Part shown: positions 23,257-23,405 of the stretch, in pieces
Position numbering within the stretch: the first letter of the stretch is position 1
Layout of the letters: every line of letters begins with the position of its first letter
From: an uncultured Clostridia bacterium
GTDB taxonomy: Bacteria > Bacillota > Clostridia > TANB77 > CAG-508
Assembly (NCBI GenBank): GCA_947625835.1
Contig: CANQPY010000001.1
Location: 115,981-179,980, forward strand
Direction of reading: 5' to 3'
DNA: 64,000 nt
Position numbers and translations under genes: made by a program
The notes under the pieces: model-generated
What the model was told of the DNA's origin: nothing
Seen by the model: the letters and a program-made list of their open reading frames with translations, nothing else
The model's database searches: none

Positions 23257-23405
23257 GCGGGTGTAGCTCAGTGGTAGAGCACTTGACTTCACTATTTCGT
23301 ATAAAAGCGGTACGTTATTAATAGTGGATAAAAGACTTGGGGCAGTACCAAGGATAGTGGCCATTAATCAAGGTACCGCGGGTCCGACTCCCGCCACCCG
23401 CACCA
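23257..23405 (+). tRNA. tRNA-Lys(UUU)-like gene interrupted by a 74-nt insertion in the anticodon loop
   Basis: 5' part GCGGGTG-TA-GCTC-AGTGGTA-GAGC-A-CTTGA-CTT. 3' part TTAA-TCAAG-GTACC-GCGGG-TCCGACT-CCCGC-CACCCGC-ACCA. Joining them gives loop CTTTTAA. The insertion is 23290-23363. Confidence 0.6.

Follow-up and report, generated by a model that had tools for sequence, protein, structure and literature searches.

A tRNA-shaped unit nested in the anticodon loop of a phage tRNA-Lys(UUU) gene

How can a phage obtain a tRNA from a gene that is interrupted within its own anticodon, if the interruption is far too small to be a self-splicing intron? This question is raised by the tRNA-Lys locus at positions 23257–23405 (+ strand) of a 64-kb stretch of DNA, hereafter the window, which corresponds to positions 115,981–179,980 of contig CANQPY010000001.1 in an assembly filed under an uncultured Clostridia bacterium (GCA_947625835.1). 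On the accepted view, tRNA splicing in bacteria and their viruses relies exclusively on self-splicing group I introns. The locus is the phage's own tRNA-Lys(UUU) gene, and it carries a tRNA-shaped unit of 74 nt (23290–23363) that is nested in the anticodon loop between U34 and U35.

The outer gene consists of a 5′ exon, GCGGGTGTAGCTCAGTGGTAGAGCACTTGACTT, the insert, which runs from CACTATT to GATAGTGGCCA, and a 3′ exon, TTAATCAAGGTACCGCGGGTCCGACTCCCGCCACCCGCACCA. The 5′ exon (23257–23289) comprises the acceptor 5′ strand, the D arm, the stem strand CTTGA, and the loop nucleotides C32, U33, and U34. The 3′ exon (23364–23405) continues with U35, U36, A37, and A38, the stem strand TCAAG, the variable loop, the T arm, the acceptor 3′ strand, A73, and CCA. 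Both assignments follow the Rfam alignment and the ARAGORN call on the spliced form, and that of the 3′ exon also the fold. Even with the insert in place, the outer gene matches the Rfam tRNA model RF00005 over 23257–23402 (model positions 1–71; 56.8 bits, E = 1.3e-9, at a gathering score of 29), with a 77-nt insertion that lies wholly within the anticodon loop. Upon deletion of 23290–23363, the minimum free energy (MFE) fold of the remaining 75-nt RNA is a canonical cloverleaf (−30.9 kcal/mol), which ARAGORN calls as tRNA-Lys(ttt) with a 7-nt anticodon loop, CUUUUAA, and a Lys-type body. The original prediction of a split tRNA-Lys(UUU) that yields a complete cloverleaf on removal of these nucleotides is thus borne out. 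The predicted splice junction joins GCACTTGACTT to TTAATCAAGGTACC, and the junction-spanning 40-mer of the spliced RNA is GGTAGAGCACTTGACTT followed directly by TTAATCAAGGTACCGCGGGTC.

The same prediction had regarded the junction as ambiguous, with UCU or UCA as alternative anticodons. A search of 185,579 cellular genomes with the D-arm and anticodon-stem string GTAGAGCACTTGACTTNNAATCAAGG, in which two anticodon positions (NN) were left free, returned at least 126 matches. All of the 126 matches listed have TT at these positions, i.e., Lys(UUU), and a UCA or UCU anticodon occurs in none of them; the ambiguity is therefore settled as UUU. Independently of this search, the ends of the insert are fixed by the comparative data on 38 inserts described below.

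This gene is the only source of tRNA-Lys found in the window: as had been noted from the sequence, neither ARAGORN nor Rfam finds a second Lys tRNA gene there, and tRNAs for the other 19 amino acids are present. AAA is the third most used codon of the window and accounts for 5.9% of all its codons. Two independently made assemblies (ENA ERZ27249475 and Logan ERR10663705) contain the identical 149 nt, so the interruption is not an assembly artefact. ARAGORN makes no call at the interrupted gene in its default mode. With introns allowed, it reports a Trp(cca) gene with a 52-nt intron together with other spurious intron-containing tRNAs; these calls were rejected as artefacts of the intron model. 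Among GenBank phages only ordinary tRNAs were found, with otherwise no similarity to the locus. The exact exon-plus-gap pattern has no match in IMG/VR, a collection from which the window itself is absent and in which no close relative provides an intron-less allele of the outer tRNA.

What is the insert? Folded alone, its MFE structure is a cloverleaf of four arms with a 7-bp closing stem (CACUAUU/GAUAGUG) and a 4-nt tail, GCCA. The closing stem is followed by an unpaired U8, a D-like arm, an arm with a 5-bp stem and a 7-nt loop, a variable region of 4 nt, and a T arm, again with a 5-bp stem and a 7-nt loop. All elements lie on the + strand. The inner acceptor stem is formed by CACTATT (23290–23296) and GATAGTG (23353–23359), with all seven pairs present and all seven positions covarying among 36 sequences. 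U8 is located at 23297. According to the fold, it precedes the D-like arm CGTAT-AAAAGCG-GTACG (23298–23314), whose loop is of the type UAAAAG. The anticodon-like arm TTATT-AATAGTG-GATAA (23315–23331), assigned by fold and inspection, has A33 and U37. The T arm CTTGG-GGCAGTA-CCAAG (23336–23352) has all five pairs, including G53-C61, and a variant T loop. A discriminator G and CCA (23360–23363), recognized from the tails across the class described below, abut exon 2 directly. The ends of the insert hence coincide exactly with the mature 5′ end (+1) and the CCA end of a tRNA. The small hairpins that had been seen in the insert do exist; they are not independent of each other, since they are arms of one cloverleaf that ends at these two points.

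Dinucleotide shuffles of the insert never reached this four-arm fold (0/2000), and its folding energy is unremarkable by the same comparison (z = −0.86). The inner unit shares with tRNA the 7-bp acceptor stem, U8, the T arm with G53-C61, and the discriminator followed by CCA. It departs from tRNA in its anticodon loop, which is not a decoding one (AAUAGUG, with A33 and U37), in its noncanonical T loop (GGCAGUA) and D loop, and in its model score. ARAGORN makes no call on it. The unit is tRNA-shaped and is not to be classed as a decoding tRNA. The window contains no further copy of it.

Is this a peculiarity of one genome? Phage loci from IMG/VR and from metagenomes, labeled herein by L-numbers (e.g., L136), were scanned for a Lys-type anticodon arm, a gap of 53–83 nt, and a subsequent TTAATCA. 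True cases were 10 among 13 IMG/VR loci and 37 among 47 JGI/ENA metagenome loci, together giving 38 distinct inserts of 58–86 nt, all of them in tRNA-Lys(UUU) genes of phages from viromes and metagenomes. The search in relatives that the original prediction had proposed thus returned the same kind of insert rather than the uninterrupted genes expected for a simple insertion pseudogene. Insert geometry was measured from the insert ends, without fitting of a structure. In 35/38 inserts, the initial 7 nt pair without mismatch with the 7 nt that precede the final four, and in 34 this closing stem is abutted by a T arm of 5 bp and a 7-nt loop. Position 8 is U in 36 inserts and the first base is G in 33 of the 38. 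The tails are ACCA (28 inserts), GCCA (5), TCCA (2), ACAA (2), and ACGA (1), so that NCCA is found in 35/38. In an end-anchored alignment, 98.6% of the cells are paired, as compared with 57% for shuffled and 43–46% for slid partners, and none of 500 shuffles reaches 98.6%. Covariation amounts to 189 double-sided changes; 11 of the 12 pairs covary, and G53-C61 is invariant in 36/36. Beyond these tRNA features, no sequence is common to the inserts. In the most reduced type, the anticodon arm is lost entirely (58 nt, L143).

Chance matches to the pattern, namely coding sequences, tandem tRNAs, and cellular matches, show the insert geometry in no case, and the 185,579 cellular genomes yield eight pattern matches, none of them nested. 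The nested class is real and, in the collections searched, confined to phage-like tRNA arrays. In silico removal of the insert restores an ARAGORN call of Lys(ttt) in 36/38 true cases as compared with 0/9 chance matches; of the two exceptions, one is truncated by the end of its contig, and the other has a deleted T arm. A separate Lys(ttt) gene is found in none of 46 loci with hundreds of tRNA genes, and Lys(ctt) occurs once. The window insert belongs to this class by its site in the anticodon loop, its ends at +1 and CCA, and the restoration of the outer tRNA upon its removal.

Nested units are not restricted to tRNA-Lys. The loci at hand were screened, blind to isotype and position, for any unit with tRNA end geometry whose removal creates a tRNA across the junction. 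Units were found in tRNA-Gln(UUG), after U34 in L172 and after U35 in L180 (L180:297–367); in tRNA-Met(CAU) after U36 and in tRNA-Asn(GUU) after C32, both in L173; and after U34 in a class-I tRNA of L172 with a UAA anticodon. Contig L172 carries three nested tRNAs. In + strand coordinates, the inner units lie at 12463–12538 and 6692–6771 of L172 and at 6965–7041 and 3253–3330 of L173. Insertion positions in these non-Lys tRNAs are 32/33, 34/35, 35/36, and 36/37, and the 5′ exon ends in U in four of the five cases. Some inner units are themselves decoding tRNAs, namely Phe(GAA) in L180, L188, and L191, Tyr(GUA) in L163, and an amber suppressor, Sup(CUA), inside the tRNA-Met of L173; several inner units reach the Rfam gathering score.

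The inner unit of the window has relatives of its own. Its T loop GGYRGTA and D loop TAAAA are common to the Lys inserts of L150, L176, L194, and L181 and to the Gln insert of L180. The D-loop type UAAAAG recurs both in L150, L176, and L194 and in stand-alone phage tRNAs. A search of IMG/VR with the T-arm/D-loop signature returned at least 76 stand-alone units, with none nested among the matches listed. The listed units are mostly tRNA-Gly(UCC)-like, with the identity set for Gly and with G1-C72, C2-G71, G3-C70, and U73, and some are Lys(UUU)-like; the anticodon loop of many is a proper one for Gly(UCC) or Lys(UUU). ARAGORN calls none of the 76 listed units, and Rfam calls some of them at 43–49 bits. 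The inner T arm of the window, CTTGGGGCAGTACCAAG, is identical in many stand-alone, Gly-like units, and the inner D arm of the window is of their CGTATAAAAG type. This stand-alone variant family in IMG/VR (L210–L329, e.g., L312:653–726, L215:1513–1586, and L326:134–207) has the D loop UAUAAAAGUA and the T loop GGCAGUA. The insert descends from this real, structurally variant group of phage tRNAs and is a degenerate, non-decoding member of it (D loop UAAAAG, T loop GGCAGUA). Because stand-alone tRNA genes with proper anticodon loops share the variant loops, this loop type is presumably compatible with normal tRNA processing. The inner units of L166 and L172 have a near-identical core with compensated acceptor stems, and the outer tRNA is tRNA-Lys in one and the UAA tRNA in the other. 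The presence of the same inner class in different outer tRNAs (Lys, Gln, and UAA) indicates that the inner unit moves between anticodon loops.

How, then, could the outer tRNA be produced? The best explanation, to which we assign a probability of about 60%, is excision by RNase P and a 3′ endonuclease, followed by sealing by an RNA ligase. The precursor would fold into two nested cloverleaves. Host RNase P would cut at the inner +1 and thereby free the 5′ half of tRNA-Lys, which ends in U34 with a 3′-OH. An endonuclease would then cut directly after the inner CCA and free the 3′ half, which starts at U35. This is the least certain step; an endonuclease is required here because 3′-to-5′ exonucleases cannot reach the site through the outer tRNA. 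Candidates are an enzyme of the RNase Z/BN type, one of the RNase E type (CCA followed by UU in an AU-rich context), or a phage enzyme. An RNA ligase would finally reseal the nick in the anticodon loop to yield functional tRNA-Lys(UUU), if needed after healing of the 5′ end by the phage kinase encoded at 30074–31117. The inner unit would in this way be an intron that uses the tRNA end-processing machinery of the cell instead of a dedicated splicing endonuclease. Removal by "protein enzymes or a small ribozyme", as suggested originally, comes close to this model. The main argument for the model, as read from the sequences, is that the insert ends and the tRNA ends coincide: selection would be expected to keep this match exact if, and only if, tRNA end processing excises the insert and the outer tRNA has to function.

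Several observations are in line with the individual steps. Even the most reduced inserts keep a 7-bp acceptor stem stacked on the T arm, R/N73-CCA, G+1 (33/38), and U at −1, and the determinants of bacterial RNase P substrates are precisely these. Thermotoga-type RNase Z, as well as Escherichia coli RNase BN in Mg2+, have been reported to cut after CCA. ATP-dependent RNA ligases of the T4 Rnl type naturally act on nicks such as the one expected in the anticodon loop, with 3′-OH and 5′-P ends. In the window, the candidate RNA end-healing enzyme (30074–31117, + strand) is a polynucleotide-kinase-like protein with an AAA_33 domain (Pfam 2.5e-16; PHROG polynucleotide kinase 8e-20) and a weak C-terminal HD match (0.004); L184 has a homologue ∼2.5 kb away from its nested tRNA. 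In L136/L193 and in L174, the nested tRNA has an RNA ligase gene (PF09414 with a PHA02142 OB domain) no more than ∼10 kb away, and the ligase of L136 is adjoined by a metallophosphoesterase. Weaker, sub-threshold matches to these domains occur in L143 and L191.

A number of points speak against this explanation. No RNA ligase was found in the 64-kb window and ∼4 kb beyond it, neither by Pfam on 82 open reading frames (ORFs) nor by tblastn with four ligases from nested loci. We know of no bacterial enzyme for which an exact cut behind an internal CCA is established across all hosts, and CCA-containing precursors are trimmed by exonucleases in many bacteria. The inner unit has no match to the Rfam tRNA model at E ≤ 10. 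For the 149-nt precursor, the nested double cloverleaf (−43.7 kcal/mol) lies 5 kcal/mol above the MFE structure (−48.8 kcal/mol). Most examples were retrieved with a pattern that required CTT...TTAA, which in itself accounts for part of the conservation seen in the Lys loop halves. The tRNA introns of Lak phages, which are compared below, call for more than RNase P, because ∼25 nt precede their tRNA-like part. Finally, the cleavages, the ligation, and the splicing are steps that we infer, at one remove from the observed architecture, conservation, and integrity of the outer tRNA.

In one alternative, the exons are never rejoined. The locus would then serve to make the inner tRNA-shaped RNA or halves of tRNA-Lys, which might act as a decoy or sponge toward defence nucleases that target tRNA or toward some other factor that binds tRNA, and the outer body would be a scaffold for folding, processing, or stability. 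The inner subfamily indeed has conserved features of its own (the T loop GGYRGTA, the D loop TAAAA, and, in L150, L194, and L181, the loop motif AAGCAAGG), no ligase was found in the window, and anticodon nucleases are known to attack tRNA-Lys(UUU). A scaffold, however, would not need loop halves that rebuild the exact 7-nt CUUUUAA, and it leaves unexplained why the arrays hold no other Lys(UUU) gene even though AAA is a top codon. Other loci, moreover, have a normal decoding tRNA (Phe, Tyr, or Sup) as inner unit, and there too the outer loop is rebuilt exactly. We consider this unlikely. Nearly as unlikely, though slightly less so, and compatible with splicing, is that the insert is kept mainly as selfish DNA that disrupts the target of a neighboring GIY-YIG endonuclease in tRNA-Lys and spreads along with it by "collaborative homing"; splicing would then do no more than render the insertion tolerable. 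A free-standing gene for a GIY-YIG/NUMOD1 homing-endonuclease-like protein (21628–22560, + strand; Pfam) lies 700 bp upstream of tRNA-Lys, and homologues occur 0.1–5 kb from the nested tRNA-Lys in L131, L136, L137, L145, L155, L172, L181, and L193. Mobility is also implied by the occurrence of one inner class in the Lys gene of the window and in the Gln gene of L180, and by that of the near-identical L166 and L172 units in a Lys and a UAA tRNA. Yet a GIY-YIG homologue also lies beside an uninterrupted tRNA-Lys in L201, so that the association is not specific, and endonucleases of this type are common in phage tRNA clusters generally. The insert may also act as a regulatory interruption of tRNA-Lys.

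Other explanations dispense with tRNA end processing altogether. A minimal group I intron or small ribozyme that splices or cleaves itself would find some footing in a possible P1-like helix, in which U34 pairs with G (UUCACUAUU/AAUAGUGGA), and in the cyanobacterial tRNA-Leu group I intron, which sits at the same 34/35 site. It is nevertheless very improbable: as the original prediction had pointed out, the insert is too short and ends in A, not G; 74 nt leave no room for a P3–P9 core, no intron, ribozyme, or riboswitch family of Rfam (including RF00028) matches the insert at E ≤ 10, and conservation across the 38 inserts falls on tRNA helices instead of a ribozyme core. The short length and the site in the anticodon loop would equally suit an intron of the archaeal or eukaryal type, which is cut at a bulge-helix-bulge by a splicing endonuclease. 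The folding search for such geometry that had been proposed earlier came back empty, since the arrangement of 3-nt bulge, 4-bp helix, and 3-nt bulge cannot be drawn at either junction by inspection or in the optimal and sub-optimal folds. The junctions instead lie at the base of a 7-bp acceptor stem, and the context is that of a bacterial-type phage (T4-like portal, bacterial-type CCA-adding enzyme, and S21), which leaves this origin just as improbable as a ribozyme. Least credible of all is a pseudogene by chance insertion or an assembly error. The missing call by default ARAGORN would speak for it, but the same sequence occurs in independent assemblies, the outer cloverleaf is intact, and 38 diverged variants share one architecture with compensatory changes. 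The retention of the outer tRNA (36/38 variants) and the lack of another Lys(ttt) gene, i.e., of a substitute Lys(UUU), in any array do not fit a pseudogene or random insertion, and the disabled gene considered in the original prediction can be set aside.

Known systems share single aspects with excision by tRNA end processing. Lak megaphage tRNAs were described to contain "enigmatic introns", one of which "itself may encode a tRNA", and introns in phage tRNAs were stated to be previously unreported (Devoto et al. 2019, PMC6784885). The introns listed in Table S6 of that study (Tyr, Phe, Gly, and Thr) each have an acceptor-like stem and a T arm of the TTCGAAT type (PMC6784885). Like the window insert, they are located in the anticodon loop, are not of group I, and are small (∼80–115 nt), and their mechanism is not known. 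They differ by an additional hairpin segment of ∼25 nt on the 5′ side of the tRNA-like part, by ends in CA or CTA instead of NCCA, by their placement at 37/38 in eukaryote-mode tRNAscan, and by their reported hosts Tyr, Phe, Thr, and Gly rather than Lys. The window insert, in contrast, has the acceptor stem at its very start, GCCA at its end, and its site at 34/35; the two are related in concept and different in form. A literature search that covered few subscription journals found no nested or tRNA-like phage tRNA intron besides the Lak introns. A unit that extends from +1 to CCA at position 34/35 of tRNA-Lys(UUU) appears to be undescribed in the literature searched. New with respect to the Lak study appear to be the exact geometry of the unit, at least 38 variants with covariation, the other isotypes, the descent from a variant tRNA class, and an explicit processing model.

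Group I introns of tRNAs (cyanobacterial tRNA-Leu(UAA) and Azoarcus tRNA-Ile) resemble the window insert in their anticodon-loop site and in a 5′ exon that ends in U; they differ in a length of ∼200 nt or more, a P3–P9 catalytic core, and a terminal G. In mitochondrial tRNA punctuation, plant mitochondrial t-elements, and the mascRNA of MALAT1, tRNA-shaped modules set precise cuts by RNase P and RNase Z. The cutting logic proposed here would by analogy be the same, except that the flanks are not rejoined in those systems, whereas the tRNA halves would need ligation here. The PrrC/Pnkp/Rnl1 system of T4 likewise involves tRNA-Lys(UUU), a break in the anticodon loop beside the wobble base, and phage enzymes that heal and seal. 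There, a defence nuclease of the host breaks the mature host tRNA 5′ of U34; here, the proposed break lies 3′ of U34 in a phage precursor. T4 also encodes Rnl, which has no counterpart found in the window, and a connection of PrrC to the interrupted tRNA-Lys is speculation. Bulge-helix-bulge introns, as well as split and permuted tRNA genes, share with the insert its shortness and, under the proposed scheme, the dependence on proteins and a separate ligation enzyme. They differ from it in that the insert has no such motif and no EndA context; its recognition element would be the tRNA shape inside the insert.

The remainder of the window gives the context of this gene. Beyond its right end lie a T4-type portal and a prohead protease, and the best matches of the portal are ∼30% identical and come from large Firmicutes phages. 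The phage is, judged from these genes, a distant T4-like myovirus, so that much of its genome probably lies outside the window. A search for relatives by way of neighboring proteins in the window yielded only two distant loci, at 30% identity and without tRNAs. With the ribosomal protein S21 gene (27139–27357), the kinase-like gene, a protein of the CCA-adding enzyme/poly(A) polymerase family (35256–36488, + strand; Pfam PolyA_pol 3e-35, tRNA_NucTran2_2 9e-8), and at least 27 tRNAs, the phage has a sizeable toolkit for translation and RNA repair. Two other ORFs were considered and dropped. The ORF at 19317–20174 resembles a ligase in motif I only weakly and not significantly, and its catalytic Lys is replaced by Arg. 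The 701-amino-acid protein at 7826–9931, considered as a processing factor, has no match in PDB or Pfam and corresponds only to PHROG 33734 of unknown function. It is encoded inside the tRNA cluster, homologues of 29–30% identity adjoin the tRNA arrays of L144 and L156, and its C-terminal part is TerD-like by eye only.

The tRNA array itself contains further unusual members. The D loop of tRNA-Phe(GAA) (22623–22704) is expanded by a run of seven T; Rfam scores the gene at 63.5 bits and ARAGORN misses it. tRNA-Tyr(GUA) (22829–22915) is found by Rfam only. Directly after it, a class-II tRNA-like gene (22919–23007) combines a well-formed acceptor stem and T arm and an extended variable arm with an aberrant anticodon arm (UCUGU-AAAAGU-GCAGA, with a loop of 6 or 8 nt); ARAGORN makes no call on it, and its sole Rfam match, to tRNA-Sec, is below threshold (27.6 bits). 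The tRNA-like element at 23677–23768 combines a 7-bp acceptor stem (CTTCCTG/CGGGAAG) and a canonical T arm (GTTTG-TTCGAAT-CAAGC) with an oversized middle that contains the hairpin AGTGT-TACT-ACACT; it has no CCA, is followed by a T run, and is called by neither ARAGORN nor Rfam. Unusual anticodons are found in Ile(UAU) (18458–18533), Pro(AGG) (5459–5535), and Leu(GAG) (18703–18774), the last of which has no encoded CCA, unlike most tRNA genes of the window.

Two features accompany the nested genes elsewhere. ROOL RNA (Rfam RF03087, ∼300 bits) adjoins nested tRNA-Lys arrays at L150:3117–3687, ∼200 nt downstream of the nested gene, and at L131:10510–11086; neither ROOL nor GOLLD was found in the window. 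A tRNA with the anticodon CUA, i.e., an amber suppressor, is present in the nested tRNA-Lys arrays of L136, L152, L162, L166, L171, L173, L179, L191, and L193, which suggests TAG-recoded phages. The window has no tRNA with a CUA anticodon, and TAG serves as stop codon in only 6 of its 78 ORFs.

What would the nested gene mean for these phages? The affected tRNA reads one of their most used codons. The nested insert may make the supply of tRNA-Lys dependent on the phage's own ligase, or refractory to anticodon nucleases. The insert also bears on the arms race around the nucleases that cleave the anticodon of tRNA-Lys. A constructive role is suggested for phage RNA ligases and kinases, beyond the repair of damage inflicted by defence. 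Phage tRNA repertoires are under-counted because standard finders miss nested genes or mis-call them, here as Trp(cca). For the "enigmatic" introns of Lak phages, the scheme supplies a testable model. Phage-specific tRNA-shaped inserts imply either splicing in bacterial cells that depends on proteins and RNase P, or another use that phages make of interrupted tRNAs. In a wider and more tentative reading, which we hold possible without favoring it, any tRNA placed in an anticodon loop would be an "instant intron" in a phage equipped with RNA-repair enzymes; it would be excised by RNase P and a 3′-end endonuclease, with resealing by a phage ligase, and would be mobile between the loops of different tRNAs. 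Such introns may spread at the RNA level, if a mature tRNA is ligated into a cut anticodon loop and the product is reverse-transcribed, or by endonuclease-driven homing. If this holds true, tRNA-shaped introns would constitute a third route of RNA splicing in bacterial systems.

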